Assembly: GCA_027923505.1 (NCBI GenBank)
Contig: BROI01000004.1
Span: forward strand, 186,001-250,000
From: Mayamaea pseudoterrestris
Taxonomy: Eukaryota
Length of the DNA stretch: 64,000 nt
Reading direction: 5' to 3'
Shown: piece by piece, positions 3,001 to 57,828 of the stretch
Position numbering within the stretch: the stretch's first letter is position 1
Layout: each line of letters opens with the position of its first letter
Translations under genes and position numbers: made by a program
The notes under the pieces: generated by a model
What the model was told of the DNA's origin: nothing
The model's input: only the letters and a program-made list of their open reading frames with translations
Database searches by the model: none

Positions 3001-5790
3001 ATCTGATGTTTGCCACTGCTAGGGTAGGCAGTCACATAGTACCTGCTAACTGAAGCTGCTGACCTGAAGGCAAAAGGCAAGCAGGAGGCTGATGCGCAAA
3101 ACAAATTCACCAAGGAGGTATGTCTTGTGCCCTCGGATCATGCACAGTGGCTGTACGCATAGAGTGTGTGGGCACTTCATGTTTGCCACTGCTAGGTTGG
3201 TGTTCGGCAGTTGGGTAGTACATACCAGCAACTTCTGCGGATCTGGAAGCAGGCAACATGCAGGAGGCAAATGCACAAAGTGAATGCACTATACAATATC
3301 CATTTGTGACCTTGGATCATGCCCCAAGCCAGTTTACAAAGAGATTGTGGGGATCTGATGTTTGCCACTGCTAGGGTAGGCAGTCACATAGTACCTGCTA
3401 ACTGAAGCTGCTGACCTGAAGGCAAAAGGCAAGCAGGAGGCTGATGCGCAAAACAAATTCACCAAGGAGGTATGTCTTGTGCCCTCGGATCATGCACAGT
3501 GGCTGTACGCATAAGTTTTGTGTGGGCACTTCATGTTTGCCACTGCTAGGTTGGTGTTCGGCAGTTGGGTAGTACATACCAGCAACTTCTGCGGATCTGG
3601 AAGCAGGCAACATGCAGGAGGCAAATGCACAAAGTGAATGCACTATACAATATCCATTTGTGACCTTGGATCATGCCCCAAGCCAGTTTACAAAGAGATT
3701 GTGGGGATCTGATGTTTGCCACTGCTAGGGTAGGCAGTCACATAGTACCTGCTAACTGAAGCTGCTGACCTGAAGGCAAAAGGCAAGCAGGAGGCTGATG
3801 CGCAAAACAAATTCACCAAGGAGGTATGTCTTGCGCCCTCGGATCATGCACAGTGGCTGTACGCATAGAGTGTGTGGGCACTTCATGTTTGCCACTGCTA
3901 GGTTGGTGTTCGGCAGTTGGGTAGTACATACCAGCAACTTCTGCGGATCTGGAAGCAGGCAACATGCAGGAGGCAAATGCACAAAGTGAATGCACTATAC
4001 AATATCCATTTGTGACCTTGGATCATGCCCCAAGCCAGTTTACAAAGAGATTGTGGGGATCTGATGTTTGCCACTGCTAGGGTAGGCAGTCACATAGTAC
4101 CTGCTAACTGAAGCTGCTGACCTGAAGGCAAAAGGCAAGCAGGAGGCTGATGCGCAAAACAAATTCACCAAGGAGGTATGTCTTGTGCCCTCGGATCATG
4201 CACAGTGGCTGTACGCATAGAGTGTGTGGGCACTTCATGTTTGCCACTGCTAGGTTGGTGTTCGGCAGTTGGGTAGTACATACCAGCAACTTCTGCGGAT
4301 CTGGAAGCAGGCAACATGCAGGAGGCAAATGCACAAAGTGAATGCACTATACAATATCCATTTGTGACCTTGGATCATGCCCCAAGCCAGTTTACAAAGA
4401 GATTGTGGGGATCTGATGTTTGCCACTGCTAGGGTAGGCAGTCACATAGTACCTGCTAAAGAAGCTGCTGACCTGAAGGCAAAAGGCAAGCAGGAGGCTG
4501 ATGCGCAAAACGAATTCACCAAGGAGGTATGTCTTGTGCCCTCGGATCATGCACAGTGGCTGTACGCATAGAGTGTGTGGGCACTTCATGTTTGCCACGG
4601 CTAGGTTGGTGTTCGGCAGTTGGGTAGTACATACCAGCAACTTCTGCGGCCAGTCCTTTGTCCTAGCCAACATACCGGCCTGCTGTCATCCAGCTCATCT
4701 AGGCAGCTAGCTAGTTGTGTTTGCCATTGCTAGGTTGGTGTTCGGCAGTTGGGTAGTACATACCAGCAAGTTCTACGATCTGGTAGCAGGCAACATGTTG
4801 GAGGCAAATGCACAAAGTGAATGCACTATACAATATCCATTTGTGACCTTGGATCATGCCCCAAGCCAGTTTACAAAGAGATTGTGGGGATCTGATGTTT
4901 GCCACTGCTAGGGTAGGCAGTCACATAGTACCTGCTAACTGAAGCTGCTGACCTGAAGGCAAAAGGCAAGCAGGGAAAAAACCAAGAGCTTGCGCAACAA
5001 CCCAGTTGCCCTCATGCACAGTGGCTGTACGCATAGAGTGTGTGGGCACTCGTTTTGCCACCGTTGGTTTCGACATTGGTAGAACATACCACAACTGCTA
5101 TCTGGAAGCAGGCAACCTGCAGGAGGCAAATGCACATAGTGATTGCACTATACAATACCGATGTGCCCAACCCTACAAAGAGATTGTGAGGATCTGATGT
5201 TTTGCCACTGCTAGGGTAGGCATTCACATAGTACCTGCTAATTGAAGCTGCTGACCTGAAGGCAAAAAGGCAAGCAGGAGCTGATGCGCAAAACAATTCA
5301 CCAAGGAGGTTCTTGCGTATGGATCATGCACAGTCGGCTGCACGCATAAGTTTTGTGTGGAGCGCCATGTTGCCACTGCTAGGTTGGTGTTAGACCGGTT
5401 GGGTAGTACATACCAGCAACTTCTGCGGATCTGGAAGCGCAGCTACGGGAGCAAATGCACAAAGTGAATGCACTAAACAATATCCACTTGTGACCTTGGA
5501 GCATGCCCCAAGCCAGTTTACAAATAGATTGTGGGGGTCTGGTGTTTGCCACTGCAAGGGTAGGCAGTCACATAGTACCTGCTAACTGAAGCTGCTGACC
5601 TGAAGGCAAAAGGCAAGCAGGAGGCTGATGCGCAAACAAATTCACCAAGGAGGTGTCTTGCGCCTCGGATCATGCACAGTGACTGTGCGCATAGAGTGTG
5701 TGGGCACTTCATGTTTGCCACTGCTAAGGTTGGTGTTCCAGTTGGGTAGTACCTTACCAGCAGCTTCTGCGTCTGGAAGCTGACGCTGCC
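1..5790 (+). repeat. Satellite A, tandem 352-bp unit (dimer of ~179+173 bp subunits), ~16 copies, runs off the window start
   Basis: catgtttgccactgctaggttgg at 1 recurs at 353 and onward. Related gatgtttgccactgctagggtagg at 180 marks the internal subunit. Copies degrade after ~4970. Confidence 0.97.
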
Positions 5791-6821: not shown

Positions 6822-7965
6822 GATATTGCCATCCCCTGAGACACCAGTCAAGCCTACCATCTAGTAGCGCAGCCTGAAGAATGATGTTGGCACCATTCTG
6901 GTGTATGTTGGGCACCCACAGGGCTTGCTGTAGGGGCATTTAAATGTCACGGCATCTGTGGGCTGAGACTGGTGACAAGTTGTCACTAAATACATTGCCA
7001 TCCCCTGAGACACCAGCCAAGCCTACCATCTTGTAGCGCAGCCTAAAAAAAGAGGTTCACATCATTTTGGTGTAATTTGGGCACCTACCGGGCCTGCTGT
7101 AGGGGCATTTGAATGTCACAGCATCTGCAGGCTGAGACTGGTGACAAGCTGTCACCAAATACATTGCCATCCCCTGAGACACCAGTCAAGCCAACCATCT
7201 TGTATCGTAGCCTAAATAATGATGTTGGCTTCATTTTGGTGTAATTTGGGCACCTACAGGGCTTGCTGTAGGGGCATTTGAAAGTCATGGCATCTGCGGG
7301 CTGAGACAGGCAACAAGTTGTCACCAAATACATTGCCATCCCCTGATACACCAGTCAAGACAAATCATCTTGTAGCGCAGCCTGAAAAATGATGTTGGCT
7401 CCATTTTGGTGTAATTTGGGCATCTACCGGGCCTGCTGTAGGGGCATTTGAATGTCACAGCATCTGCAGGCTGAGACTGGTGACAAGTTGTCACCAAATA
7501 CATTGCCATCCCCTGAGACACCAGTCAAGCCATCCATCTTGTAGCGTAGCCTGAATAATGATGTTGGCTCCACTTTGGTGTAATTTGGGCACCTACAGGG
7601 CTTGCTGTAGGGGCATTTGAATGTCACAGCATCTGCGGGCTGAGACTGGTGACAAGTTGTCACCAAATACATTGCCATCCCCTGAGACACCAGTCAAGCC
7701 AACCATCGTGTAGCTCAGCCTAAAAAATGAGATTCGCAGCATTTTGGTGTAATGTGGGCACCTACCGGGCCTGCTGTAGGGGCATTTGAATGTCACAGCA
7801 TCTGCAGGCTGAGACTGGTGACAAGCTGTCACCAAATACATTGCCATCCCCTGAGACACCAATCAAGCCAACCATCTTGTAGCGCAGCCTGCATAATGAT
7901 GTTGGCTCCATTTTGGTGTAATTTGGGCACCTACAGGGCTTGCTGTAGGGGCATTTGAATTTCAC
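6822..7965 (+). repeat. Satellite B, 169-bp tandem unit (left, more diverged block, ~7 copies)
   Basis: ttgccatcccctgagacaccag and tggtgacaagttgtcacca recur every ~169 bp. Confidence 0.95.
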
Positions 7966-9768
7966 GGAAAATGCGGAGTTTCAGTGGCAGCCTACGTGCA
8001 AAAGCATAATCTTCTCAACAAGGATGGATGGGCATCATTGAATTGATGGGCCCGGAACGCCAAGAAGGTTGCGCGCAAGGTGGCAACCGCCCGAATGGAG
8101 CAGCAGAAGAACGGACCGCGCTACAAGTTTGGAGTCCAAGTACCCCGAGATTGGAAGGAGGCGCGACGTTTGCAGGAAGCTGCAGGGCACATGAAGTGGA
8201 TGGATGCGGAAGGCGTGGAGCTTGCGAACCTGGATGAGTACGAGACGTTTCAATATCTCGGTCCGAGTTCCACCACAGCACCACCAACTGGTTACCAAAA
8301 GATCCGAGTCCATTTTGTGTACGATGTCAAGCACGATTTGCGATACAAGGCACGTCTCGTTGCAGGCGGCCACCCAATGAAAGACAATGATGATGCCTAC
8401 TCCAGTGTTATCTCATTGAAGGCAATGCGTCTAGCTCTCGTCATTGGAGAAGCGAACAGCAAGAAGTGCATGGTCGGCAACATTGGGAATGCTTATCTTG
8501 AAGCGTTCACCAAGGAGAAGGTATACTTCGTTGGAGGCCCCAAGTTCGGGGAGCGCGAAGGACACATCCTGGTCATCATCAAGGCTTTGTACAGATTGCG
8601 AACGAGCGGAGCACGATTTCACGAACGCCTAGCCGATGCCCTACTTGCGGAAGGGTGAAAGCCATCCTATTGCGATTCCGATCTGTGGATCAAGGACGCC
8701 GGCGACAGCTACGACTACCTCTGTGTATGGGTCGATGATCTGTTGAATATTTCAGACGATCCAGCAGCGTTCTTCAAGATGCTAGAGGAGAAGTACAAGT
8801 TTAAGCTCAAAGGTGTTGGACATCCCAAGTATCATCTCGGCGGTGACTTTGGATGAGACCCTGACGGAACTCTTTACTGGTCAGCCAAGTCCTACGTTGC
8901 GAAACTCTTGGCGCAGTACGAGCGTTTGTTTGAAGGTCCTCCGAAGAAGTATACATCACCAATCGACAAAGACGACCATCCCGAACTTGACCAAAGTGAA
9001 CTACTGAACGTCCAAGAGAAGAAGATTTACCAGTCTCTAGTCGGAGCACTTCAGTGGGTGATTACTTTGGGACGATTTGACATTGCCGTAGCAGTTGTGA
9101 GTCTGTCGTGATTCCGTGTGGAGCCGCGCAAGGGACACCTGCAGCGGGTGAAGTGAGTCTGTGGATATTTGCGAGAGTTACCGGACGCAGCAATCCGTTT
9201 CCGTACAAAGTGGCCAGCCAACGAGGAGCACTTCGGTACCATGGAGGAACAAGATTGGGAGCGCAGCATTTACGGGAAGGACGGAGTTGATGAGATGTTG
9301 GATGTCTACCCACCGCCAAAGGGTGTGACTGTGCGAACATCAACTTTTGAGGATGCATGTCTCATGCGCAAGTCATTGGAAGGAGTTTTGTCATTTGTCA
9401 ACCAGACGCCTGTCGACTGGCATTGCAAACTCCAGGCTACAGTCGAGACTGCGACCTTCGAATCGGAATTCGGCGTAGCAAAGAGTGGAACGGATATCAG
9501 CATTTCTCTACGTGCGTCGCTCATGGCTATGGGCGTACCATTGGAGAAGTCTGCCTGGATGTACGGAGACAACCAAGCAGTGATTACACAATCTACAACC
9601 CCGAGTTCGACGTTGTCCAAGCGACACAACGCGTTGGCCTACCATTGTGTTCGTTGGGCAGTTGCTGCGGGGATTATCAAGTTTGTGAAGATTGACGGAA
9701 AGGAGAACACTGCGGACGTACTTACCAAGTACCTGCCGTACTGTGATGCGATGCCATTGCTCAAGCCA
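7966..9768 (+). pseudogene. Degenerate Ty1/copia (CoDi-like) RT-RNase H fragment, a different family from the young element
   Basis: YKFGVQVPR, VYDVKHDLRYKARLVAGGH, WVDDL, QATVETATFESEF, NTADVLTK. In-frame stops at 8656, 8854, 9109 and 9154. No LTRs. Confidence 0.93.
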
Positions 9769-12700
9769 AATACATCGCCTTGCCCTGAGACACCAGTCAA
9801 GCAAACCAACTTGTAGCGCAGCCACAATAATGATGTTGGCACCATTCTGGTGTATTTTGGGCACCTACAGGGCTTGCTGTAGGGTAGTTTGAATGTCACG
9901 ACATCTGCAGGCTGAGACTGGTGACAAGTTGTCACCAAATACATTGCCATCCCCTGAGACACTAGCCAAGCCTACCATCTTGTAGCGCAGCCTGAATAAT
10001 GATGTTGGCACCATTCTGGTGTATTTTGGGCACCTACAGGGCTTGCTGTAGGGGGGTTTGAATGTCACGGCATCTGCGGGCTGAGATTGGTGACAAGTTG
10101 TCACCAAATACATTGCCATGCCCTGAGACACCAGCCAAGCCTACCATCTTGTAGCGCAGCCTGCATAATGATGTTGGCACCATTCTGGTGTATTTTGGGC
10201 ACCTACAGGGCTTGCTGTAGGGGCATTTGAATGTCATGGCATCTGCTGGCTGAGACTGGTGACAAATTGTCACCAAATACATTGCCATGCCCTGAGACAC
10301 CCGCCAAGCCTACCATCTTGTAGCGCAGCCTGAATTATGATGTTGGCACCATTCTGGTGTATTTTGGGCACCTACAGGGCTTGCTGTAGGGGAGTTTGAA
10401 TGTCACAACATCTGCGGGCTGAGACTGGTGACAAGTTGTCACCAAATACATTGCCATCCCCTGAGACACTGACCAAGCCTACCATCTTGTAGCGCAGCCT
10501 GAATTATGATGTTGGCACCATTCTGGTGTATTTTGGGCACCTACAGGGCTTCCTGTAGGGGAGTTTGAATGTCACAACATCTGCGGGCTGAGACTGGTGA
10601 CAAGTTGTCACCAAATACATTGCCATCCCCTGAGACACTGACCAAGCCTACCATCTTGTAGCGCAGCCTGAATAATGGTGTTGGCACCATTCTGGTGTAT
10701 TTTGGGCACCTACAGCGCTTGCTGTAGGGGCGTTTGAATGTCACGGCACCTGCGGGCTGAGACTGGTGACAAGTTGTCACCAAATACATTGCCATCCCCT
10801 GAGACACTGACCAAGCCTACCATCTTGTAGCGCAGCCTGAATATTGGTGTTGGCACCATTCTGGTGTATTTTGGGCACCTACAGCGCTTGCTGTAGGGGC
10901 GTTTGAATGTCACGGCACCTGCGGGCTGAGACTGGTGACAAGTTGTCACCAAATACATTGCCATGCCCTGAGAAACCCGCCAAGCCTACCATCTTGTATT
11001 GCAGCCTGAATTATGATGTTGGCACCATTCTGGTGTATTTTGGGCACCTACAGGGCTTGCTGTAGGGGAGTTTGAATGTCACAACATCTGCGGGCTGAGA
11101 CTGGTGACAAGTTGTCACCAAATACATTGCCATCCCCTGAGACACTGACCAAGCCTACCATCTTGTAGCGCAGCCTGAATTATGATGTTGGCACCATTCT
11201 GGTGTATTTTGGGCACCTACAGGGCTTCCTGTAGGGGAGTTTGAATGTCACAACATCTGCGGGCTGAGACTGGTGACAAGTTGTCACCAAATACATTGCC
11301 ATCCCCTGAGACACTGACCAAGCCTACCATCTTGTAGCGCAGCCTGAATAATGGTGTTGGCACCATTCTGGTGTATTTTGGGCACCTACAGCGCTTGCTG
11401 TAGGGGCGTTTGAATGTCACGGCACCTGCGGGCTGAGACTGGTGACAAGTTGTCACCAAATACATTGCCATGCCCTGAGAAACCCGCCAAGCCTACCATG
11501 TTGTAGCGCAGCCTGAATGATGATGTTGGCACCATTCTGGTGTATTTTGGGCACCTACAGGGCTTGCTGTAGGGGCGTTTGAATGTCACGGCATCTGCGG
11601 GCTGAGACTGGTGACAAGTTGTCACCGAATACATTGCCATCCCCTGAGACACCAGCCAAGCCTACCATCTTGTAGCGCAGCCTGAATAATGATGTTGGCA
11701 CCATTCTGGTGTATTTTGGGCACCTACAGGGCCTGCTGTAGGGGCGTTTGAATGTCACGGCATCTGCGGGCTGAGACTGGTGACAAGTTGTCACCAAATA
11801 CATTGCCAAGCCCTGAGACACCAGCCAAGCCTACCATCTTGTAGCGCAGCCTGAATAATGATGTTGGCACCATTCTGGTGTATTTTGGGCACCTACAGCG
11901 CCTGCTGTAGGGGCGTTTGAATGTCACGGCATCTGCGGGCTGAGACTGGTGACAAGTTGTCACCAAATACAATGCCATCCCCTGAGACACCAGCCAAGCC
12001 TACCATCTTGTACAGCAGCATGAATAAGGATGTTGGCACCATTCTGGTGTATTTTGGGCACCTACAGGGCTTGCTGTAGGGGCATTTGAATGTCATGGCA
12101 TCTGCTGGCTGAGACTGGTGACAAGTTGTCACCAAATACATTGCCATGCCCTGAGACACTCGCCAAGCCTACCATCTTGTAGCGCAGCCTGAATTATAAT
12201 GTTGGCACCATTCTGGTGTATTTTGGGCACCTACAGGGCCTGCTGTAGGGGCGTTTGAATGTCACGGCATCTGCGGGCTGAGACTGGTGACAAGTTGTCA
12301 CCAAATACATTGCCATCCCCTGAGACACCAGCCAAGCCTACCATGTTGTAGCGCAGCCTGAATAATGATGTTGGCACCATTCTGGTGTATTTTGGGCACC
12401 TACAGCGCTTGCTGTAGGGGCGTTTGAATGTCACGGCACCTGCGGGCTGAGACTGGTGACAAGTTGTCACCAAATACATTGCCATGCCCTGAGAAACCCG
12501 CCAAGCCTACCATCTTGTATTGCAGCCTGAATTATGATGTTGGCACCATTCTGGTGTATTTTGGGCACCTACAGGGCTTGCTGTAGGGGAGTTTGAATGT
12601 CACAACATCTGCGGGCTGAGACTGGTGACAAGTTGTCACCAAATACATTGCCATCCCCTGAGACACTGACCAAGCCTACCATCTTGTAGCGCAGCCTGAA

Positions 12701-14124
12701 TTATGATGTTGGCACCATTCTGGTGTATTTTGGGCACCTACAGGGCTTCCTGTAGGGGAGTTTGAATGTCACAACATCTGCGGGCTGAGACTGGTGACAA
12801 GTTGTCACCAAATACATTGCCATCCCCTGAGACACTGACCAAGCCTACCATCTTGTAGCGCAGCCTGAATAATGGTGTTGGCACCATTCTGGTGTATTTT
12901 GGGCACCTACAGCGCTTGCTGTAGGGGCGTTTGAATGTCACGGCACCTGCGGGCTGAGACTGGTGACAAGTTGTCACCAAATACATTGCCATGCCCTGAG
13001 AAACCCGCCAAGCCTACCATCTTGTAGCGCAGCCTGAATGATGATGTTGGCACCATTCTGGTGTATTTTGGGCACCTACAGGGCTTGCTGTAGGGGCGTT
13101 TGAATGTCACGGCATCTGCGGGCTGAGACTGGTGACAAGTTGTCACCGAATACATTGCCATCCCCTGAGACACCAGCCAAGCCTACCATCTTGTAGCGCA
13201 GCCTGAATAATGATGTTGGCACCATTCTGGTGTATTTTGGGCACCTACAGGGCCTGCTGTAGGGGCGTTTGAATGTCACGGCATCTGCGGGCTGAGACTG
13301 GTGACAAGTTGTCACCAAGTACATTGCCAAGCCCTCAGACACCAGCCAAGCCTACCATTTGTAGCGCAGCCTGAATAATGATGTTGGCACCATTCTGGTG
13401 TATTTTGGGCACCTACAGCGCCTGCTGTAGGGGCGTTTGAATGTCACGGCATCTGCGGGCTGAGACTGGTGACAAGTTGTCACCAAATACAATGCCATCC
13501 CCTGAGACACCAGCCAAGCCTACCATCTTGTACAGCAGCATGAATAAGGATGTTGGCACCATTCTGGTGTATTTTGGGCACCTACAGGGCTTGCTGTAGG
13601 GGCATTTGAATGTCATGGCATCTGCTGGCTGAGACTGGTGACAAGTTGTCACCAAATACATTGCCATGCCCTGAGACACTCGCCAAGCCTACCATCTTGT
13701 AGCGCAGCCTGAATTATAATGTTGGCACCATTCTGGTGTATTTTGGGCACCTACAGGGCCTGCTGTAGGGGCGTTTGAATGTCACGGCATCTGCGGGCTG
13801 AGACTGGTGACAAGTTGTCACCAAATACATTGCCATCCCCTGAGACACCAGCCAAGCCTACCATGTTGTAGCGCAGCCTGAATAATGATGTTGGCACCAT
13901 TCTGGTGTATTTTGGGCACCTACAGGGCCTGCTGTAGGGGCGTTTGAATGTCACGGCATCTGCGGGCTGAGACTGGTGACAAGTTGTCACCAAATACATT
14001 GCCATCCCCTGAGACACCAGCCAAGCCTACCATCTTGTAGCGCAGCCTGAATAATGATGTTGGCACCATTCTGGTGTATTTTGGGCACCTACAGGGCTTG
14101 CTGTAGGGGGGTTTGAATGTCACG
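9769..14124 (+). repeat. Satellite B, 169-bp unit, ~26 copies, with a ~1521-bp (9-mer) higher-order duplication
   Basis: 169-bp periodicity. Variant monomers recur at 1520-1521 bp offsets (ORF pairs 11217/12738, 11386/12907, 11555/13076, 11893/13413). Confidence 0.97.
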
Positions 14125-14157
14125 GTTATCCTTGGTTCGATTCCGAGGTGCGCTACT

Positions 14158-14296
14158 TTGGGGAATGTCACTTTTCAGTTTTTCCTGCGGCGTTTCGGGC
14201 TCGGCGCATCTTTGTGCACTCCCCAGGGTCCGCGAGACGAAAATGCCAGCTGAAACGGAAGACGAGTTAGCACTATGACGCGCAAAGCTAGGGGAG
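14158..14296 (+). mobile_element. Probable 3' tail of a copia-type pol, followed by a polypurine tract
   Basis: Frame reads LGNVTFQFFLRRFGLGASL...* (TGA 14251-14253), resembling a copia RNase H C-terminus. AGGGGAG at 14290-14296 matches the PPT of the young copia (GAGGGGAG 17737-17744). Confidence 0.5.
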
Positions 14297-14880
14297 TAGC
14301 AGGTTGCACACGAAAAACAGCAACCAGAGCGATACCTTTACTTGTCATAGTGCATGGTGCCTTGTATGCAGCATATAGTACACTAGCAGACGGAAAAGTA
14401 GCAGCGTGTTTAGAGGTGATATAGCCGGTTATCCTTGGTTCGATTCCGAGGTGCGCTACTTTTAACGGCATAGTGATACTACTTTCTGTTGCATACCTGC
14501 TAATTGCACACGAAAAACAGCAACCAGAGCGATACCTTTACTTGTCATAGTGCATGGTGCCTTGTATGCAGCATATAGTACACTAGCAGACGGAAAAGTA
14601 GCAGCGTGTTTAGAGGTGATATAGCCGGTTATCCTTGGTTCGATTCCGAGGTGCGCTACTTTTAACGGCATAGTGATACTACTTTCTGTTGCATACCTGC
14701 TACCATGCACTATGACAAGTAAAGGTATCGCTCTGGTTGCTGTTTTTCGTGTGCAACCTGCTAATAGCAGGTATGCAACAGAAAGTAGTATCACTATGCC
14801 GTTAAAGTGGAGCTGCGCAAGGATCACCGGCTATACATCCTCTATGACACACGCTTTCGGGTCATCTGTGTACTATATGC
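14297..14880 (+). mobile_element. 206-bp LTR-like unit (14297-14502), tandem copy (14504-14702) and inverted permuted copy (14702-14880)
   Basis: Starts right after the PPT. Terminal inverted repeat TAGCAGG...CCTGCTA. Its 5' end tagcaggttgcacacgaaaaacagc resembles the young copia LTR start ttgcaggatgcgaacgaaaacagc. Confidence 0.65.
14377..14463 (+). ncRNA. tRNA-like RNA polymerase III cassette inside the LTR-like unit (copy at 14577-14663; partial at 14123-14159)
   Basis: AGTACAC/GTGCGCT acceptor-like pairing (6/7), A-box-like TAGCAGACGG at 14384, T-arm CTTGG-TTCGATT-CCGAG with B box GGTTCGATTCC at 14437-14447, TTTT at 14460-14463. No valid anticodon stem. Confidence 0.55.
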
Positions 14881-17800
14881 AAAATCCATGCGAACGTCAC
14901 ACGTCGCACATTAAGCCAATGATGGAGAACCTCCAACGAGATTCGGGTTCGCCAGGCCATTGCTGGGTTTTGCTGATTAAATTCGTAATCATGATACTGA
15001 ACGTCCTCGCGACGAAATCGCTGGGATGGCGCACGCCAACGGAAGTTGCGTTCGGAAATCTGCCGGATATTTCGCCTTTGTTACATTTCAAGTGGTGGGA
15101 ACCGGTCACGTTTGAGGCGCAGGGGAGCTTTCCCTCGGCGGTACGATCTGGCAACGGCCGATTCGTGGGCATCGCAGAGAATAGCGGTCCGCACATGACT
15201 TTTCTCGTTCTGACGGACGACACGCTTCAGGCGATTCCGCGCTCCAACGTGGTCTCGCGCAGCTACTTGTTACCACGAGAGTTGCCTTCCTTTCCTGAGT
15301 CTGGAGGGGAGATTTCTGAAGAAGCTACACGCGCAAGCGAGCGAAATTTTGAAACTCCAGATCTCGCGACAGGACGCTACCATAGCACGCATGTGACAGA
15401 AAGTAGTCACGACAACTACGAAGGAAACGACGAAACTCCGATGGCGAACCACGCCAACGTACCAGCGAAGTTCTTCAGAAGGGCTGAGCAAGAATCAGGG
15501 AATAAATGCCCTCTGTTCTCTCCAAGCGAACTCATCGGACGCACGTTCGTAAGGGAACACGAAAACGGTCAGAAAATGCGAGCGACTGTATGCGAATATA
15601 TCGAAGTACGCGATAACGAGCTACTCGAAACGACGAAAGGTTTCCTAATCCAAATGGGAGAGGAGCCAGCGAAAGACTTAATAAGTTACAACGAACTGTC
15701 GGATTTAATCGAACGACAGATGGACGAAGATATACGAAACGATCCGGCGACTCAGTGGGTATTCACGAAGGTAATCGGACACGAGCTTAATTTGAAACCG
15801 AACGATCCGACATACAAAGGAAGTTCAAGTAACGTTTCGTCCGGAATGGACTGACGGAACGACGACGTGGGAGCCTCTCGCGATCATGAAGAAGGACGAT
15901 CCGATAACAATCGCAGAGTATGGACTCAAGCACGGCTTACTCGACAAGCCAGGATGGAAGCAGCTGGAGCATTACACTCGGAAGCGAAAGAAGTTTCGAC
16001 AGATGGTAACAGCGGCGAAACGAAAATCGAAAGCAAACGGCGTACGCTACAAATTCGGCGTAAGGTTGCCGCGCAATTATAAAGATGCGAAAGCTCTCGA
16101 CGAGATCAACGGCAACACGCTGTGGACGGATGCGATTCGAACGGAATTAAATCAGATAAATGATTACGACACGTTCGCAGATCAAGGAGTCGGTAAGGTT
16201 ATGCCGGCGCCGTGGAAACGAATAAACGTGCACATGATATTCGATGTCAAGCACGATTTGCGACGGAAAGCACGACTCGTCGCAGGAGGACATATGACAG
16301 AGCCGCCGAAGGATTCAGTTTACTCGGGCGTTGTGTCATTGCGAAGTCTACGAATGGTAGCGATGTTAGCGGAACTCAACGGTCTGGAACTGTGGGCAGC
16401 TGACGTCGGCAACGCATACTTGGAAGCGAAAACGAAAGAGAAGGTTTATATCGTGGCAGGTCCGGAGTTCGGGGAGCTCGAGGGTCACACGCTCACGATC
16501 GTGAAGGCACTATACGGTCTTCGCACGTCAGGCGCACGCTGGCATGAACACTTTGCAGACACGCTCCGCGACATTGGCTTCATGCCGTGTATCGCAGAAC
16601 CGGACGTGTGGATGCGCGATAAAGGCACGCACTACGAATACGTTTGTGTGTATGTCGACGATTTAGCGATAGCGATGAAGAATCCGAAGGAACTAACGGA
16701 TCTTTTAATTGAGAACTACAACTACAAGTTGAAGGGCGTCGGTCCATTGGCATATCATTTGGGCGCAGACGTTTGGCGAGACGACGACGGCGTACTCTGC
16801 TTCGGAGCGAAGAAGTACGTCACAAGACTACTAGCGAACTACAAAGAAATGTTCGGCGAGGAACCGCGACCGCAGACAAGTCCACTACGCGACGGCGATC
16901 ATCCGGAACTCGACGAAACGAAAGAACTTGACGACGACGGAATTGCGAAGTATCAATCGATAATTGGTGCGTTGCAATGGGCAGTAAGTTTATGTCGATT
17001 CGACATTCACTGTGCTGTCATGACTATGGGGAGATTCCGAGCTGCGCCACGAGCGGGGCACTTGGAACGGTTGAAGCATATTTGCGGATACTTACGAAGA
17101 TACCCGGATGGAGCGATTCGATTCAACGTTTCGATTCCAACGGACGAGCGATACGCGACAGTTGACAAGATGGATTGGAATTACAGTGTGTACGGCAAGA
17201 TCTGCGAAGAGCTTCCGTGGAACATGCCCACGCCGCGCGGCAAGGCGGTGCGAATGTCAACGTTCGAAGATGCAAACCTGTACCACGATTACACGACGGG
17301 ACGGGCAGCGATGGGCATGCTACACATGTTGAATGGAACAGTCGTTGATTGGTTTTCGAAACGCCAAGCGACGGTCGAGACGGCGACGTACGGCTCGGAG
17401 TTTGTAGCAGCGAGAGTGAGCACGGAGCAGATCATGGATCTTCGCTTCACGCTACGCATGTTGGGAGTTCCGCTCGACGGACCTTCATGGATGTTTGGAG
17501 ACAACAAGTCGGTAACGCAAAGCAGCAACCTACCGCACTCTAGTCTGACGAAGCGACACAATGCACTGGCATTTCACCGTGTACGCGAAGCGATTGCGGC
17601 GGGAATTATTAATTTCAACCACATCATGGGAACGACAAACCCGGCGGATGTACTTACCAAGTTTCTTCCACGGGCTACGGCAAGCAAGCACTTAAAGAAC
17701 CTGCTCTTCAAGGAATCTAACTATTAGGTATGACTTGAGGGGAGTTGCAGGATGCGAACGAAAACAGCGAAAATCGGGCAAGTCACACCGAATGTCCGAT

Positions 17801-18057
17801 AGGGTGACACAGCGGCACTCGCGGCTCACCACAGCCTCACGATCGCGTGATGCGTGGCAGCGACGGCTTCGAAGCGATTCAACAAGTATATTGCTGAAAC
17901 TAGTGCGATATAGAGTAGAAACAAGCAGACTTACTAAGCTTGAAGAGTTAAGAAAGCGATTTATTCGTCTCTCGTATTGTAGCAACTGCAAGCTTGGATT
18001 GGCCATCCAAGGACAGCTACAAGCGAAAGGTGCAACGATTTGATTTACAAGTTACAA
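14881..18057 (+). mobile_element. 5'-truncated copy of the young Ty1/copia (CoDi-like) element: partial IN, RT, RNase H, PPT, 3' LTR
   Basis: Near-identical to the elements at 40.5-53 kb. ORFs to 15854 and 15886-17727 with a frameshift near 15840. YVDD and NPADVLTK motifs. Confidence 0.96.
17745..18057 (+). repeat. 3' LTR (~312 bp) of the young copia
   Basis: Follows PPT GAGGGGAG. (T)TGCAGG...GTTACA(A). Same sequence on the minus strand at 46538-46850. Confidence 0.9.
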
Positions 18058-19575
18058 GACTGTTTGCGCGAAAAGTACTTTCGAGAGAAGGCGCTTTATG
18101 AAAAGAAGCTTGCCTCCTTTTTGCTCGACAACCCAGAGTATGAAGCGACAGCAGGTGTCAATGCGCCATCGAAAGCAGCGGCAGCCTCTTCTTCAACCGC
18201 TGCAGTCACTGATGCAAAAAATGGCATGTCGCTTTACAATAAAGTCGTTCGTCTCAAACCTGGAGTCATGACGGAAGGTTCTGAGTTTACCTATTGGTAT
18301 GTCCTGACATACATTCCTGACCTCAAGTGGTGCCACTTGGCGCCGATGAAGGCTTGCGGCAATTTTGGAGACGATAAGCCAAAGTCGAGTGGACGAACAA
18401 AGTACCGCCTCGTCGATGAGAAGCTGGGTAAGGAAGTCGATATAAGTAGTTCGTTTTGCATACCCATCAAGGCTCGAGCAATGAGGAAGACTCTTGACGC
18501 CGACATGGAAGAGTGGGACGTTGTCGATGATGGGTCTGAACCTGATGCGGAAGTCAGTCAACCTCGGATGAGCAATTCAGCAAGTCGTAATTCATCGAGG
18601 CCTTTGCGAACCAGTCCGGTAAAACCGTCGGCCGTTCCTAAACCACCAACTGGTCTCAAATGCAAAACCCCACAAGCGAGTGCAGGCGATTCATGCCTAA
18701 GACTTCCCACCATGATGGCACTTTTGCCCGAGGGCGAATCCGAGGTAGTTGTGCGCCTTGTTGGGAAAGAAATTTACGATCCAATTGCCATTTATCCATC
18801 AAGTACTGCGAATCTTGGTCGTCAAAATGATTCTATTAGTTCGAAAAAGAGGAAACGCTTATCGAACGTTCAAGACGAAGTTATTGTCGAGATTGTTGCT
18901 ACCAAGGCTCAACGAGGCGATCGATTAAAAGGATCAAAGAACAAGCGCAAAAATACTGAAGGTGCGCCAGCGCCTGTCGAAGTTAACAACGTGGCCAATA
19001 CCAATATCACCAGTCCACTGACACGAAGTCAGCATAGTATACAGGAGCAGGAGCCGGCAAGTAAACGAGTACGACTATCATCTCCTCAGGCATCGCGACC
19101 GTCACGCATCGGAAAAGGCCACAAGGAAAGTGTAACACCTACTAGGCAGATAAATTCTTCTGAAAGTTCCCATGTGCAGCCGCATTCACTCCACTTTGCC
19201 GCTGCTAGAAGAAGCAGTCCTAGAGGATTGTCAAGCCATGTCAAGACGGCGTCCATAACCACACAACTCGTTACGACGTCCAGTCCGAGGCGACTTCCAA
19301 GGGGTACGGTCGGACCGTCTCACAAGCGCACTCGACATTGCATGTCTTCGCCATCGCCCACAATTGAGAAGCGAACACTTCGTAGCTCAGCTCCAAGTCC
19401 TTTGAACGACGCAACACCCGCTTCGACGAAAAGGCGACAATCGCCGCGGCTGAAAGTAACATCAGCGGTGCGGCGTTCCATTTCCACGATTCGCGAGAAA
19501 TACGCGCACAAGCATCAGCAAACCGAGCCAGTTAATAACGCTCGGCCAAAGAGAAAGGCTGCTCTCGACTTTTAG
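18058..19575 (+). CDS. 5'-truncated host gene; probable HMG-box C-terminal helix, conserved domain and basic Ser/Arg-rich tail
   Basis: Long ORF with no start of its own after the LTR. REKYFREKALYEKKLASF resembles an HMG helix 3, followed by LYNKVVRL..YWYVLTYIPDLKWCHLAPM. Confidence 0.6.
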   Translation, partial: DCLREKYFREKALYEKKLASFLLDNPEYEATAGVNAPSKAAAASSSTAAVTDAKNGMSLYNKVVRLKPGVMTEGSEFTYWYVLTYIPDLKWCHLAPMKACGNFGDDKPKSSGRTKYRLVDEKLGKEVDISSSFCIPIKARAMRKTLDADMEEWDVVDDGSEPDAEVSQPRMSNSASRNSSRPLRTSPVKPSAVPKPPTGLKCKTPQASAGDSCLRLPTMMALLPEGESEVVVRLVGKEIYDPIAIYPSSTANLGRQNDSISSKKRKRLSNVQDEVIVEIVATKAQRGDRLKGSKNKRKNTEGAPAPVEVNNVANTNITSPLTRSQHSIQEQEPASKRVRLSSPQASRPSRIGKGHKESVTPTRQINSSESSHVQPHSLHFAAARRSSPRGLSSHVKTASITTQLVTTSSPRRLPRGTVGPSHKRTRHCMSSPSPTIEKRTLRSSAPSPLNDATPASTKRRQSPRLKVTSAVRRSISTIREKYAHKHQQTEPVNNARPKRKAALDF

Positions 19576-19767: not shown

Positions 19768-20604
19768 TTAATGACCATTCGCAGTCGACAACTTTTCAGC
19801 CAACTCTTTGAGCAAACGCATGACCAAATCCTTGCTCAAACCCATGACGCTGTCTTCTGTTCCATCGATACGTTCAATGTATTGCTTGACGAGTTTATGC
19901 TCCACCATGAGACCACCCGCGCAGCTCAATATGGGGGCATCTTCCTCGAGCAACCTGTCCACCAATCCTTCGTTCGGTTCGTTTTTAAAGCGTATGGTAG
20001 CCGTGTCGACACCAGCTACTATCGTTTTGCTTGGTAGATGCATCAGCACGACAGATCCAACGGTACTAGGAGGATGTTTCGAGTACATGGCAACCATTGC
20101 CTTGGCCTCGTCCACCGATTCTGGCTTTTCCAGTATTTTGCCGTTGCAAGTGACAACTTGGTCGCCCGTCAAAATGATGTATTCGTTTTGCTTTGGAAGG
20201 TCATTGTCGCATCGACCGGCTTGTATTTCGCTCGCCAAATGATTCATTTTCGCGTGGGCAAGGTGTAGGACCAAGTCACTTGGCTTGTCAGTGTCGCGAT
20301 TGCCCAAGCTCCGTTCGTCGATTGGTCGCACCAATATATGATAGTTGACTCCCATTTCCTTCAGTATGAGCTTTCTCGTGAATGATGACGATCCGAGAAT
20401 GAGAGGTGACGGCAGATGGAGCTGCACCAGTGGATCATGGACGAGTGCAGAAGCTTCTGGAGTCGGAGACATGCTGCTGCTGAATGAGGCGGAATGTGGA
20501 GTGCTTACAAATTGCAACCGCTGTACAAAGCTATATGAACAGGAAGCAAGACAGAAACAAGTCAGTAGAGTGTACGTTGAGCCTGCTGCGATGCCAAGTA
20601 CCAT
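19768..20604 (-). CDS. Maf-family nucleotide pyrophosphatase (YceF-like) with hydrophobic N-terminal presequence
   Basis: LILGSSSFTRK, IDERS, LTGDQVV, ILEKP, CAGGL, SVMGL motifs. Confidence 0.9.
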   Translation of the reverse strand: MVLGIAAGSTYTLLTCFCLASCSYSFVQRLQFVSTPHSASFSSSMSPTPEASALVHDPLVQLHLPSPLILGSSSFTRKLILKEMGVNYHILVRPIDERSLGNRDTDKPSDLVLHLAHAKMNHLASEIQAGRCDNDLPKQNEYIILTGDQVVTCNGKILEKPESVDEAKAMVAMYSKHPPSTVGSVVLMHLPSKTIVAGVDTATIRFKNEPNEGLVDRLLEEDAPILSCAGGLMVEHKLVKQYIERIDGTEDSVMGLSKDLVMRLLKELAEKLSTANGH

Positions 20605-21050
20605 TGTTTCATGTGGTCAAAAGTCAAAAGTGAAAGGAAGGCAGCATCGAAGAAATCTTTCAGAACCGTTGCGACGTCGTGCTACTACGGCGCTTGGCTT
20701 CTTGATTATGCGCCTGCAGACCATCAAGTTATCAGGGAATGATCTGCTTAACGTGTGCTGTACGAGTTACTATGTTTCAATAAAGCTTTACAGTCGTACA
20801 ATATGCCTTGATGCGTTTGACATTGCAACACTTCCGGTGGAGGCATTATTTGAAAAGCCATTACTTGTTACTTCTTCTTTGCAGATCATCAACAATCTTT
20901 GCTTTGTTGCGTACTTTTGTGACGGACCACAGCTGAAGGAAAGATTATACTGTGCATCGATGATAAGAAAGAAGCCTTGGCATCGAGCCTTGCCATGTCC
21001 ATAAATTCAGAACAGTCTCGCATAGGCGATTGTAAAACACAAACAGCATG

Positions 21051-22286
21051 TTAAGCCACCTTTTCCATCAAAGGAACTACAACACTGCAGGCGCTCGCGA
21101 CAGGAGCAGCAGCTGTCGCCGGCACCAAGGCCGCCAGCTCCTTTTGCAGCTCCAGCAAGCCTGCGTTTGCCTTGAGACCCGGCTTGCTGGCGCGGGCACT
21201 GAGCAGCATGACGGGTAGTCGACTCGTTTCGCGCACCAAGCGTTCCGCCAGTTGCTCCTTCACTTGCAAAACGCGGCGCGCCAAGTCGGTTTGCTCCATC
21301 AAGTCGCACTTTGTCAAGACGAGTTGTATTGGCGGCAGTGAGCTTTTCGCCGCAGATACCTTCTGGTCGTCGCTGCTCTGATTGCTCGTTTTTACTTGCT
21401 GCTGCAGCAGCTCCAAAAAGTCAAAATCGGCCTGCTTCATACCATGCCGCGCATCAATGAGCAGTAATAATCGCTTCAAGGGAGCGCCCCGACGTAGCAA
21501 GTAGTGTGACATGGTTGCTTGGTAGTTGGTGGCTGCTTCCGGAGACGCGTAGGCAAAGCCATAGCCGGGCAAGTCGACGAGCCGCAGCATGCGAGTGGGC
21601 CGTGATCGAGACGCCAGCTGGTAAATGGTAATGGCGCGGGTTTCTCCCGGTTTGGATGACACAGTGGCCTTGTGACCCTTGGGGAGCTTGTTGTTGGTTT
21701 CATCTGGCGATCGACGACGGCTGGCGAATGGAGCCTGCTCTTGCTCCTCGCGACTTCCATACAGTAGATTGTTGAGCAACGTCGACTTTCCAACGTTGGA
21801 ACGACCAGCCAAAGCAATCTCTGGAACGACAGCGCGACCATCGCTTCGCTTGCTGGAGCTCACCGACTGAATGTCTTCGACCGAGCTCATGGATGCAATG
21901 ATTGACACTGGCTGACTCTCCGCGCCAAAGGGAGGTGGTGCGCGCAATAACGTTGGTTTTATGTCGCTGACAGTTGACGAGTCAGTAATGCTGCTGCCGA
22001 CTCGATGCTGTCGTTGAGGTCGCCCCTTGTCGAGTGTTCTCCGTCGCAACGGTCTGCGTCGTGTTGGAACGCCAACTCCAATGGATTGTATATGTCTCAG
22101 TAGTTTTGGATCGACTGGAATGTTTCTGAATTGCTGCCGAGCACTCTCCATGGCGTTGTTTTCGTTGCTGGTCGTCGTTGCTCCTTTCAAAGAAGAAAGC
22201 AGTCGTCGGCTTGCCACGAGCCATGGTGCCGACTGGATCGAGACTTTGCAGCGATTGCTACTGCTGCGCAGAGTACACTGTAACAT
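21051..22286 (-). CDS. engB: EngB/YihA/YsxC ribosome-biogenesis GTPase, probably mitochondrial
   Basis: G1 GRSNVGKS, G2 KPGET, G3 DLPGYG, LLIDARHG, G4 TKCD. Arg/Ser-rich N-terminus. Confidence 0.9.
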   Translation of the reverse strand: MLQCTLRSSSNRCKVSIQSAPWLVASRRLLSSLKGATTTSNENNAMESARQQFRNIPVDPKLLRHIQSIGVGVPTRRRPLRRRTLDKGRPQRQHRVGSSITDSSTVSDIKPTLLRAPPPFGAESQPVSIIASMSSVEDIQSVSSSKRSDGRAVVPEIALAGRSNVGKSTLLNNLLYGSREEQEQAPFASRRRSPDETNNKLPKGHKATVSSKPGETRAITIYQLASRSRPTRMLRLVDLPGYGFAYASPEAATNYQATMSHYLLRRGAPLKRLLLLIDARHGMKQADFDFLELLQQQVKTSNQSSDDQKVSAAKSSLPPIQLVLTKCDLMEQTDLARRVLQVKEQLAERLVRETSRLPVMLLSARASKPGLKANAGLLELQKELAALVPATAAAPVASACSVVVPLMEKVA

Positions 22287-22686
22287 AATATGAGCCTAGC
22301 TGAGTGCCTCAAAGCACTTTATTCGGGCTAGAGACAGTTCGTTGTCTTGGTCGCTTCATTGCATCGATGGTTACGAGTTGATGTGAAAGAAACGGATGTC
22401 GCAAGGGTTTACCTTCACATTTTCACATTTTTGGCGAGCTGGTGGCGTTGAGGCGAGTCAACGAGGACAGGCGTTATGTTAGTGATCTCACTCTCCATAT
22501 GTTTAGTGTTCAATCAGAAAGATAGAATTTGTATCTTTGCTTGTTGTCGCAACAGAATAGAGTTTGAAGTAGAAGGTTGATTGATAGGGAAACATCGTAC
22601 CGGTATTGCTGCGACACCAAAATTTTAAATTTTCGACGACGCAAATCGTGACAGTTGGATTTGTTCTTCGGCTATTCCCTTCAACC

Positions 22687-23682
22687 ATGAGGGTTTCTCT
22701 TTTACTGCTAATTTCGTGCCTATGCAAGCATGCATCTGCTACAGTGCTTCAATTTCCCCGCCGAGTAGCAGATTTAAGACAACAAACAGCAGCAGCAAAT
22801 AGTCGGCGTTTTGCTGCATCGCTTTCCATTCCACGCGGTGGGAGCGAGCAAGCCAAAATCTTTAAACGATTCGCATCGGACACTCGCATGCCGAGTCTCT
22901 TTTCGTCCGACGACTCCGTCTTTGATAAATATGCCGCTTGCTTGGCGGCTACCGAAGGACTTCGTCGCATTCGCGATCGAGACATGATGGAGGAAGTCAA
23001 GTCGAACGATATCATGGGAGGCTCACAGTCGGACAGGGAGCAGCTTATTACGAAGGAATACGTCAAGAATACGGCAAAAGTGCTGCAAGTCATGGGATTG
23101 ACTGTCAAGCAGTTTAATGAATTAGGCAAGCAAATATCGAGGGATGAGCGACTGAGGGAGAAGGTACGTTGCGAATGTCTCTGCTCGCCATGCTGTCTGC
23201 ATGTTGATGTTTGAAGACTAACGTTCCATCATTATTGAAAGGTCATGGAGCAAGCATATCTTTATAGAATGGCCGCCACGATACAAATGGACAAGTTTCC
23301 CTTGGTGGAAGACAATCTGCGCAGTAGCGAGGGGTTACAAGACTTTCAGCGCGACAAGGTGGAACTCTTTTGCGAAAGCATGTCGGAGATTGAGCATCTT
23401 CGAGAGGACCAAATTGAGCGATTGAAGCGGGCATTGCAGGTTGATACCTTTCCCGCCAGTTTAAGCATTAGCGATCCTAGCCTAATGCCGTTTCTAAGCC
23501 CAAAAGTCCGAGCCGTCGTGGAAGCCTTTCCCTACCAGGCGGAGGAAATTATCAAGAAACATGGGCTTGACTCGGAAGAGTTCAACCAAATGCTGGCCGA
23601 GACAAAGACAAATCCAAAGTTTCGATGGAAGGTTCAAAAGCATATTCGCAATCAGGGAGGACGACAGGGGCAACATCGATAG
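22687..23682 (+). CDS. Signal-peptide protein with two DUF4168-like helical repeats; intron 23164-23241
   Basis: MRVSLLLLISCLCKHASA. Repeats MGLTVKQFN and HGLDSEEFN. The gtacgt...aag intron joins the two ORFs in frame. Confidence 0.75.
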
Positions 23683-25461: not shown

Positions 25462-28400
25462 CTAGTCCAACCAATTCGCATACTCCCGATCCATGCGGGC
25501 AAACACATCGTCGACAGTCTCCTCTCCTTCAGTGCTAAACAATTCGTCGTCATTAACGTCAAATCGACGATTCGTGCTTATAGACTCGGGCGACCATTGA
25601 AAGTCATCCTTGCACATGTCACCAAACTCGAGTTCGATGCGTTCCATAGTAGTTTGAAACGACTCTTCGCCTTCGCGCTCCGCCGGAGAAACGATTACTT
25701 CCACACCTGGTTGCGATAGGGATGCATTGGACTCATCGACAGCTGCTGTTAACGAAGCTTGTAGCTGCAGTGACATTGTTGCCTCCTCGTTGCTCATATA
25801 CAGTAGTTTGCTAGTGATCCGTTCCAAAGATGTGGAGAGGGACAGACGTTTTTCGGTTAACTCTTGAAGCTCGGCTGCTAGCTGCTGCTGTGTCTCCAAT
25901 GATAGCGTGGTCGCGTTGGTCAATGAAGTCATACTTTTGCCTAACGGACCCTCCGTTGCTGGTGAGCCTTTAAGTTTAGTGCGAACCATGTCCCATCGCC
26001 GAGAAACCGTCGCCCACTGGTGCGTGTAGTACAGTACTTGGATGGCTAACTCACGCTGGATATCGCTCTGCGCATTCTCTTCGCGTGCCTCGATCACTGA
26101 TTCCAGACTTCCCTTTGGTTCAAGGAATAAATGATCGAGCATTCCGATTGATACCTCACTCATTTCCTGACCATCAAACCTCATGGAATGCCCATTGATT
26201 CGCTGATTGTCAGTTGTCATGGCAGATCGGTAGGCGCTTTTAGAAGCTGCTTCGTTCTTGTTAGCCGACTGTAAATCCAGCGTATCCTCCTGCTCATGGG
26301 GTAATACATTGCCCTGCGATTCTGTATGAAACGAATTTCCAAAAGCATTTTCTGGGCAGTCCGGGAGAGAGGTTAAAGTTGTCCGCAGCTGCTCGCGAGT
26401 TGCGGAGATGAGGAAGCTATCGCTGAGCAATTTATCGAATAGCCACTCATTTTCCTTGCAGCTCCATGCTAGTTCGCCATGGCCACCACCGACGGCACTA
26501 CGCGCCATGCATATATTTCTCATTGCTCTTCTAGCAGTAGCATGACTCACTAATAGAGTCAACAGCTTGCTTTCACAACTCAGTTGAATACGTAACGGAT
26601 CTTTTCTTGCCAGCGGTCCAAAACCGACGCGCTTTTGTACAAGTGAAATAATATCGAAGTGGTCCAAATTACGCCTATCGTATGTGTACCCCGAAGTCAC
26701 TGCCTGTTCAGTGAGATATTTGCGACCCTGGAAGTCATTTGAGTTAAAGTAAACTGGGATGTCGAGTCGATAGAATCCATTGTAGTCAGCGACGTCATCA
26801 GTTGATTGCTTAAACGGCCCGTAAAGGCGAGTCTTAGAAGTATTTCCACGAAGCAAATTTCCTTCTTCAAAGCGCGAACCTATTTGCTTCCACTTTTCGT
26901 CAGTGAGGCCAAGCCAAGCAGCATCCAAGTCATTTTCGAATTGGGGACCGCCAAAATGATCAAGTATAGAGCGTTCCGTCTTCAAAGCGAGATCGCGCTC
27001 GCGCTTCACTTTGAAGGTGCGAGTCTTTGGTTTTACTGGAGCTGATTCAGCAGGCAAATATTGTTGTGTTGAGGATGCTGTAACACTACTGCGAGTCAGA
27101 TTCGTTGTCATGTTTCGTGAAAGCTTCTCTTCGTCGTCGAGTATAGATGCGCTACCACCCATTGTTATGGCCTTCATTCTTGATCCGATGGTAGCGTCAT
27201 TCACTATCGTTGCAGATGACTCGGCCCGTCGCAGTAACGCCTCCTTCTTGTCTGCTATTCGTGACACAAGACTGATCAAGTCAGACTCCAGTTGGGCATG
27301 CACCGCACTCGATGCGACAGTCTCGTTCGACTCGTTCGCCACAATCTTCGCCAGCAACCCCGCCACCTCGTAAGCATGTTTCGTCCGATCGGCGGCTTCC
27401 ATCGTCGCCGCGATAAATTCGGCAGCGCGCTCAAACACCTTGCTGAAACTATTCTCGCAACCACGCGCTGCAGATGAATCATAGGAGGACAGCATCCGAC
27501 TCAAGTAAAACTGCGTCCAATCTGTTGCGTTGGCGAGAATCACACGGTCGAACTCATTCGCAATTGCATTCGATTCCATTGTGGACGTCAACAACTCTGC
27601 ATACTCTGCCGGGTCTTTACAACCATCAGGGAGTCGAGCAACTAGAAATTGGACCGAGTATTTCTTTACCGTTTCCTTCAAAAGGCCATTGCTGCAAACC
27701 AACTCCATGGCAGCGAGTCCTGCAGCATCATTGTCAAGACACAAGACAACCTTTCCGTTGAGCTTTCGGGCTGTTTGAGCCGCCAGCGCGAGCTGATCCC
27801 TTGAAAGCGCCGTGCCCATGCTTGCCACCGCCCCCTTGACGCCAGCCGCCCACAATGCAATGGCGTCCATGTATCCTTCGACAATGACAAGACTTGTTTG
27901 CCTTGCAACAGTTGGATCTTTCGACAACAGTTCGTTGACTTTGTGTAAGCCAAACAGTATTTTGCTCTTGTGAAACACCAGTGTTTCTGGACTGTTCAAG
28001 TACTTTGGTCCTTGATAATTGTTTGCAGACGATGATACTGTTCCAACATTTGGAATGTCACGGCCTCCGAAACCCAAGACTTGCTTTCCGGTAATATCCA
28101 TAATGGGAACAATGAACCGGTTGCGAAACCGATCCATCAAGTCACTGTAGTCAAGTCCGTCGTCGCTGCGTTCCGTCGCGTTGCTCGTATCAATGACAAT
28201 CGAGTCAAATAGTTTGTTCACTGTCGTGGCCAAACCCGCGTCCATAATCTCCTGCGGCGTAAAGTCCAGTTGCTCTAAGTGCTCCACCAAGCTACCCTGT
28301 CCCCAGACTGCTCGCTTATGCGCGCCGTAGTATACATCCGGCGCGTAGCCCAGACAAAAGGTTTGCACCGTTTGTGGTTCCAAGTGGCGCGATCGCGCGT

Positions 28401-36860: not shown

Positions 36861-36864
36861 GCCG

Positions 36865-56910: not shown

Positions 56911-56911
56911 T

Positions 56912-57826: not shown

Positions 57827-57828
57827 AT

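Follow-up and report, generated by a model that had tools for sequence, protein, structure and literature searches.

A putative copia-type LTR pair at a satellite edge in a diatom carries a stretch resembling the 3′ third of a tRNA gene

In a 64,000-nucleotide stretch of the Mayamaea pseudoterrestris genome (assembly GCA_027923505.1, contig BROI01000004.1, positions 186,001 to 250,000; hereafter, the window), a unit of 206 bp that resembles a copia LTR contains what the first-pass annotation described as an 82-nt, tRNA-shaped Pol III module. The locus raises three questions: whether the unit is an LTR, whether the module within it descends from a tRNA, and whether it works as a Pol III promoter. 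The answer favoured here—probable, if only just—is a pair of copia-type LTRs, each with an inert relic of the 3′ end of a tRNA gene or pre-tRNA. The features on which the argument turns are as follows, with positions given in the window.

9766–14125, no strand assigned: 169-bp satellite array (Tandem Repeats Finder: period 169, 25.8 copies, 94% matches)
14123–14159, plus strand: solo 37-nt piece resembling a tRNA 3′ part, 100% identical to 14426–14462
14160–14289, plus strand: stretch unique within the window, with one frame open up to the TGA at 14276–14278
14290–14296, plus strand: PPT-like AGGGGAG, adjoining the start of unit A (compare GAGGGGAG at 17736–17743 in element X)
14297–14502, plus strand: putative LTR unit A, 206 bp, with imperfect terminal inverted repeats TAGCAGGTTGCA... 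/ ...TGCATACCTGCTA
14377–14458, plus strand: the 82-nt "tRNA-shaped module" of the first-pass annotation, with a second copy in unit B at 14577–14658
14503–14702, plus strand: putative LTR unit B, in which 14504–14702 is identical to 14304–14502 over 199 nt
14703–14763, minus strand: inverted copy of unit positions 1–61, 100% identical, in a head-on joint with the end of unit B
14764–14806, minus strand: inverted copy of the unit's last 42 nt (14765–14806, 100% identical) plus one extra base (14764)
14807–14880, minus strand: inverted, far more diverged version of the module region, lacking the T loop, the 3′ T stem, and the A-box-like letters
14881–17743, plus strand: Ty1/copia element X, 5′-truncated within the integrase region, with RVT_2, the pol stop at 17727, and a PPT at 17736–17743
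17744–17977, plus strand: LTR of element X, 234 bp, without the tRNA-like piece, its 5′ end homologous to that of unit A

The first of these questions can be answered with some assurance. As had been described, the AGGGGAG tract is followed directly by the 206-bp unit, and the likeness of the unit's 5′ end to the neighbouring copia LTR was borne out: 14290–14321 agrees with 17738–17768 and with 47091–47061 at 84% over 32 nt. This homology to the LTR of X covers the PPT core and the first ~25 nt of the unit. The motif GGGGAGTNGCAGG occurs three times in the window against 0.21 expected, a count reached by none of 100 shuffles. At the other end, three different sequences continue from the unit's boundary at 14502 within the window. 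Nine public sequencing runs from three studies, none of them listed as RNA, contain matching sequence; contigs from four of these runs were compared with the locus, and in them a diverged copy (634-nt contig; runs X1 and X3) stops matching at the same base. Run X1 also yields a 206-nt contig equal to unit A, and a 500-nt contig of run X7 bridges the junction of PPT and LTR, covering 14230–14502 with no differences. Features expected of a Ty1/copia LTR—a PPT directly upstream, ends homologous to those of a related family, and defined termini—are all present, and the prediction that 14297–14502 is the LTR of a copia-type family is well supported.

The stretch 14297–14702 would then be a tandem pair of ~200-bp LTRs belonging to a Ty1/copia-type family, here called Y, that is related to but distinct from X. 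The LTRs of the two families share the PPT core, the first ~25 nt, similar lengths (206 versus 234 bp), and a tendency to form tandem LTR–LTR pairs; the remainder, however, cannot be aligned, and the LTR of X has no T-arm-like piece. In unit B a lone A at 14503 replaces the first 7 nt of the LTR. The two units lie in tandem rather than flanking an internal region, and no family-Y internal region, PBS, intact 5′ LTR, or target-site duplication was found at the locus. The "pol-like tail" that had been proposed upstream of the PPT was not confirmed, its basis being the open frame alone, with translations unlike the end of the pol of X. No match to 14160–14296 was found elsewhere in the window, and 14160–14289 shows no likeness to the unit's 3′ 40 nt, to the satellite, or to the pol tail of X. 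A weak resemblance links 14270–14290 to the reverse complement of unit positions ~37–57 (17 of 21 letters), with 10 of 500 shuffles scoring as well.

The pair belongs to a rearranged nest of LTR pieces, joined variously in tandem, head-on, and in inverted orientation, that lies between the 169-bp satellite array and the 5′-truncated copy of X; both flanks of the cluster are rearranged. Read on the minus strand, the joint at 14763/14764 is itself a junction of LTR end, a single T, and LTR start, and the inverted alignments overall show an identity of about 74–75%. Contig cover in the four runs is uneven across the nest: the bin 14818–14868, within the diverged inverted variant, has almost none in any of the four, and unit B, which fits two places, has mostly empty bins for that reason. 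The unit's contig depth is about that of its flank, this depth not being a copy number.

Tandem and inverted LTR pieces together form a long, near-perfect hairpin at 14498–14767, which could feed into small-RNA pathways if it were transcribed. The long inverted repeat also produces an artefactual Rfam match to MIR5638 over the same coordinates (63 bits; gathering score 500), and matches to sno_ncR3 and mir-728 lie below any threshold.

Element X offers a comparison for the LTR junctions. Contigs of runs X1, X6, and X7 continue to the left of 14880 with other sequence, indicating that full-length copies of X exist and that the copy at 14881 is truncated. After the end of its pol at 17727, the PPT GAGGGGAG is followed by the 234-bp LTR at 17744–17977. 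Elsewhere in the window X forms an LTR pair of its own (46617–47084, minus strand; two units of 234 bp, 98–100% identical), and two copies of X stand in tandem with a period of 6503–6506 bp and LTRs in common, 40653–40952 being equal to 47156–47455. Each of these tandem copies has one long gag-pol frame, of 1947 and 1979 codons. The X pair and the tandem elements together suggest that LTR–LTR junctions are a habit of these families. The nearest Atlas clusters to the reverse transcriptase of X are from Bacillariophyta, and no confirmed relatives of it were found in viral_contigs. Directly after the X LTR, a leader of 80–82 nt is present at four places (17978–18059, 46536–46617, 40502–40581, and 53026–53106); that at 17978 is cut off after 82 nt, and an open frame of 530 codons without a Pfam match spans 17983–19575.

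Copia elements in the window alternate with satellites of at least six families (periods of 352/179, 169, 362, 180/352, 181–183, 208, and 42 bp), in blocks at 1–4649, 6825–7965, 9766–14125, 35244–40234, 53458–58899, and 62211–62553, with a diverged relative of the 169-bp family at 57362–57826. Between the repeat blocks lie genes for a Maf-like protein (19768–20616, minus strand), an MMR_HSR1 GTPase (21051–22295, minus), a DUF4168 protein (22588–23214, plus), a DnaG-type primase/Toprim protein (25462–29385, minus), and a WD40 protein (31401–32654, plus). Every unit of the 169-bp satellite contains TTGTAGCGCAGC, which is similar to the motif that follows the LTR of X. An 8-mer shared by the module's acceptor end and this satellite motif is, by our estimate, at chance level.

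Whether the module descends from a tRNA has to be asked separately of its two parts, since the description of an 82-nt tRNA-shaped unit holds for the 3′ third (T arm, B box, 3′ acceptor strand, discriminator, and TTTT) and fails for the 5′ two thirds. The proposed acceptor pairing AGTACAC/GTGCGCT does give six of seven pairs, one of them G-T; a match of this quality within a range of ~20 nt is, however, expected by chance about one time in four (our estimate), and the minimum-energy fold does without this stem. In that fold, which is no stabler than those of shuffled sequences (z = −0.26), AAAAGTAGC pairs with GCTACTTTT. The absence of a pairing anticodon stem, noted at first pass, was confirmed, there being neither a D arm nor an anticodon arm. 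Letters resembling an A box include TRGC and YGG, but they are weak, with A rather than Y at the fifth position, and as TAGCAGACGG they repeat the LTR's own terminal motif TAGCAG.

Dedicated tRNA searches, which had been suggested as a check, did not bear the module out. ARAGORN at default settings called no tRNA gene there, and the Rfam tRNA model (RF00005) gave no match at E ≤ 10 either on 2 kb (13500–15500) or on 106 nt. In its relaxed pseudogene mode ARAGORN reported 14377–14459 as "tRNA-???" with a 4-base anticodon. Of the four arms of a cloverleaf—acceptor, D, anticodon, and T—by which a tRNA gene or pseudogene is recognised, the full set is not present, and the upstream 45 nt, for which an acceptor, A box, and anticodon region had been proposed, are ordinary LTR sequence. 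Two ATATAG motifs, candidates for an ordinary Pol II-type LTR promoter, stand at 14371 and 14417. Nor does the unit resemble a tRNA-derived SINE, as there is no tRNA-like head, the piece lies 130 nt into the LTR, and the solo copy is only 37 nt long.

The tRNA-like part is confined to 14426–14462, comprising a variable loop, T arm, 3′ acceptor strand, discriminator, a C, and a T run. Here the earlier description of a clean T arm with a B box stands in full: CTTGG/TTCGATT/CCGAG is followed by GTGCGCT, A, C, and TTTT at 14460–14463, with the B box at 14437–14447. Across 14434–14463 the 5-bp stem, 7-nt loop, 7-nt strand, discriminator, and T run all stand at exact tRNA-gene distances. These are the elements by which the 3′ end of a tRNA gene can be told, and on this shape the last 37 nt, though not the 82-nt cassette, may plausibly have come from a tRNA.

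The main competitor at this point is chance, whereby a T-arm-like hairpin and a T run would have arisen in ordinary LTR sequence with no tRNA ancestry. Several results speak for it besides the unremarkable fold and the want of a tRNA-like 5′ part. The B-box motif taken singly is at chance level, with one independent occurrence in the window (three copies of one sequence) against 0.83 expected. When the Rfam tRNA model is applied to the 36-nt piece alone it scores only 12.7 bits (E = 1; gathering score 29; model positions 38–71, 5′-truncated mode), and other Rfam families score alike on the same 36 nt. The 19-nt T arm of the module is found at six loci in metagenome_contigs, at five of which ARAGORN reports no tRNA over the match. 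It may also be that the inverted in-window variant, which has no T loop, represents the ancestral state of the LTR. Against all this stands the combined geometry: in 1000 first-order simulations the combination of B box, 5-bp stem, and TTTT at tRNA distance arose at a rate of 0.001 per 64 kb, and at this locus every element keeps its exact spacing. At that rate about one such combination per 60 Mb would still be expected by chance. The sixth of the metagenome loci lies within a real tRNA-Phe, which speaks for a tRNA origin, as does the alignment of the 36-nt piece to the tRNA model; the six loci do not identify a source tRNA, and the exact 22-mer from T loop to discriminator has no match in metagenome_contigs, viral_contigs, or genome_contigs. 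A chance origin is considered rather unlikely.

On the favoured reading, the 37-nt stretch is most likely what is left of a tRNA gene's 3′ third, or of that of a pre-tRNA, with its U-run trailer included, and would have been taken up into the LTR of family Y before the known copies diverged. It would now be an inert passenger and not a Pol III transcription unit.

Evidence on the fate of the boxes comes from two diverged copies, namely that on the 634-nt contig and the inverted variant in the window. The former, at ~10% divergence, shows that the module is not confined to a single copy, one of the circumstances that would have told against the first-pass annotation. Of its 147 aligned letters 15 differ, 10 of them in the central 76 nt that hold the module and 5 in the outer 71 nt. 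Among those in the centre, the B box has two, the A-box-like stretch one, and the acceptor strand one at its first base, while two more destroy the T run. Neither of the T-arm changes is at odds with a T arm, one turning TTCGA into TTCAA and the other a G-C pair into G-T, and that in the A-box-like stretch is toward the consensus. Such changes are also expected under weak selection on the boxes, and one copy proves nothing either way. In the inverted variant the flanks are kept (GCATATAGTACAC and TATAGCCGGT.ATCCTTG), whereas neither the T loop nor the 3′ stem nor the A-box-like letters are present. The boxes are thus no better kept than their surroundings in these two copies.

These observations bear directly on the more ambitious interpretation, in which a Helenus-like (TRIMp3) or copia LTR would hold a working tRNA-derived Pol III promoter or TFIIIC site and would make a small RNA, drive transcription of the element, or form a chromatin boundary. 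The letters offer it some encouragement. A perfect B box and T arm are preceded, 53 nt upstream, by TAGC...CGG, and TTTT follows two bases after the discriminator; with 53 nt between them, the A-box-like letters and the B box are spaced within the range in which Pol III can work. TFIIIC can bind to a B box alone, which leaves a role as insulator conceivable, and the locus lies exactly at the satellite edge. The module is moreover retained in the ~10% diverged copy with T-arm-compatible changes, and GGTTC, TRGC, and YGG are present, as they are kept in the LTRs of Helenus described in the body of PMC10886601. The promoter itself fares less well: there is no cloverleaf, the A box lacks Y at its fifth position, the copy on the 634-nt contig has no T run left, and both boxes are absent from the inverted variant. 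Because the TTTT stands directly after the module, Pol III would be expected to stop there, before the internal region could be reached and an element-length transcript made. What remains of the proposed retroelement with a captured promoter is the LTR, and neither a small RNA, nor self-transcription, nor insulation found support. A working Pol III unit of this kind is judged improbable.

A Helenus-like arrangement might still be sought in the solo piece at 14123–14159, where the satellite array ends. If this were the remnant of a 5′ LTR, the locus would amount to a TRIM of ~550 bp, within the 311–1263 bp size range given for Helenus in the body of PMC10886601. The 40 nt due after the solo piece are, however, missing, as are a PBS, an intact 5′ LTR, and a target-site duplication. 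A reading of 14160–14199 as a diverged U5 of a 5′ LTR was rejected: no likeness to the LTR's last 40 nt was found in 14160–14296, and 394 of 500 shuffles score as well. Since the sequence that follows it is unlike the LTR's last 40 nt, the solo piece is not simply a truncated 5′ LTR.

The piece carries three of the module's four T's. On its left it has GG in common with the satellite, and copies of a 9-nt direct repeat, GAATGTCAC, border it at 14114–14122 and 14165–14173. Its 100% identity, the GG microhomology, and the flanking repeat fit a templated insertion. Short templated insertions at repaired DNA breaks are a known kind of event (for example PMC11724301), and the solo piece is like them in being an exact copy at a junction of unrelated sequences, with 2 nt of microhomology and a 9-nt flanking repeat. 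To judge from the junction, it is most simply explained as a short templated insertion copied during break repair from the LTR 300 bp away. Its boundaries coincide with those of the tRNA-like stretch, however, which that mechanism does not predict; the same coincidence speaks for a second capture of the 37 nt, which could have come from an abundant RNA.

Beyond the solo piece, 14160 and 14231 are joined on opposite strands in contigs of runs X1, X3, and X6, and the stretch between them is bounded by the inverted motifs TGGGGAATGTCAC / GTGCACTCCCCA. This joint may be an inversion polymorphism or a foldback junction.

A role short of transcription may also be imagined, in which a diatom copia LTR has kept a mimic of a tRNA 3′ part, with a T arm and an acceptor end resembling that of its primer tRNA, because of what it binds: either TFIIIC, as a stramenopile counterpart of Helenus or as a boundary at the satellite edge, or the element's own PBS, in self-priming or in the control of priming. 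This is regarded as highly improbable. Its second arm supposes that the piece copies the 3′ part of the family's primer tRNA and would pair with a PBS downstream of the LTR. The observation that prompts it lies inside X, where a 25-nt look-alike of the unit's 3′ end occurs on the strand antisense to the ORF in three copies, at a score that none of 500 shuffles equals, and is followed at once by TGGTAGCG, which is how a PBS would read if its tRNA ended like the module's acceptor end plus CCA:

15375–15407 (plus strand), 42924–42956, and 49427–49459: look-alike and TGGTAGCG in three copies of X, antisense to the ORF of X

This arrangement may be a relic of an LTR–PBS junction captured into an ancestor of X, and the position of the look-alike directly before TGGTAGCG suggests, speculatively, that the module might copy the primer tRNA of its family. 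Initiator tRNA is the usual copia primer, its acceptor starting with A:T and its discriminator being A, as in the module's acceptor end, and self-priming is known from Tf1. Primer mimicry nonetheless appears very unlikely, for no family-Y PBS was found in the window, the PBS-like match is only 8 nt long and lies inside a coding region, a T run rather than CCA follows the module, the sequence after the LTR of X differs, and the T loop TTCGATT is, we take it, not of the initiator type.

The relic reading, to return to it, can be set beside known LTRs that contain fragments of small-RNA genes. Cassandra TRIMs carry a 5S rRNA-derived Pol III promoter in their LTRs, and the idea of such a fragment inside an LTR is common to them and to the Y unit; unlike Cassandra, the locus gave no Rfam match to 5S rRNA over 13500–15500 at E ≤ 10.

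Closer parallels are found in Helenus (TRIMp3), a group of TRIMs known from fungi, animals, and one plant, with a tRNA-like sequence in their LTRs (Kojima 2024, PMC10886601) and a conserved box A, TRGCY...YGG, and box B, GGTTC (section 3.5 of that paper). Partial tRNAs are, as the same text remarks, present in "not a few" Repbase LTRs. As in Helenus, a tRNA-like stretch lies within a short LTR (206 bp), its box B containing GGTTC and TRGC...YGG standing farther 5′; a copia-type element is the apparent mobiliser, as proposed there for fungal Helenus, and a working tRNA is unlikely to be encoded. Unlike Helenus as portrayed in the body of that paper, only the 3′ third of the stretch is tRNA-like and a T4 run follows at once. 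There are also, at this one locus, no paired LTRs around a PBS–PPT core and no target-site duplications, and Bacillariophyta are not among the hosts named in the paper's abstract, the first part of its Results, and its Discussion. The Y unit is known from one locus and one diverged contig copy.

The novelty first ascribed to the unit was overstated in that tRNA-derived LTRs were described in 2024, in the Helenus work just cited (PMC10886601, main body). For diatoms, no description of a tRNA-like LTR was found in the literature searched, which took in the same sections of PMC10886601 and, by title and opening of the abstract, papers listed on diatom retrotransposons; the main text of the diatom CoDi paper (PMC2806351) contains no occurrence of "tRNA".

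Were the piece active, LTR elements with Pol III promoters (Cassandra, Helenus, and Ajax) would be extended to the stramenopiles, and the role of TFIIIC sites at satellite borders could be tested at this locus. As seen, it is one more LTR holding part of a tRNA, a class already noted among Repbase LTRs in PMC10886601, and it illustrates how LTRs can be joined in tandem and inverted order where a satellite ends. Its practical value is one of caution for the annotation of tRNAs and SINEs in repeat-rich genomes of the diatom type.
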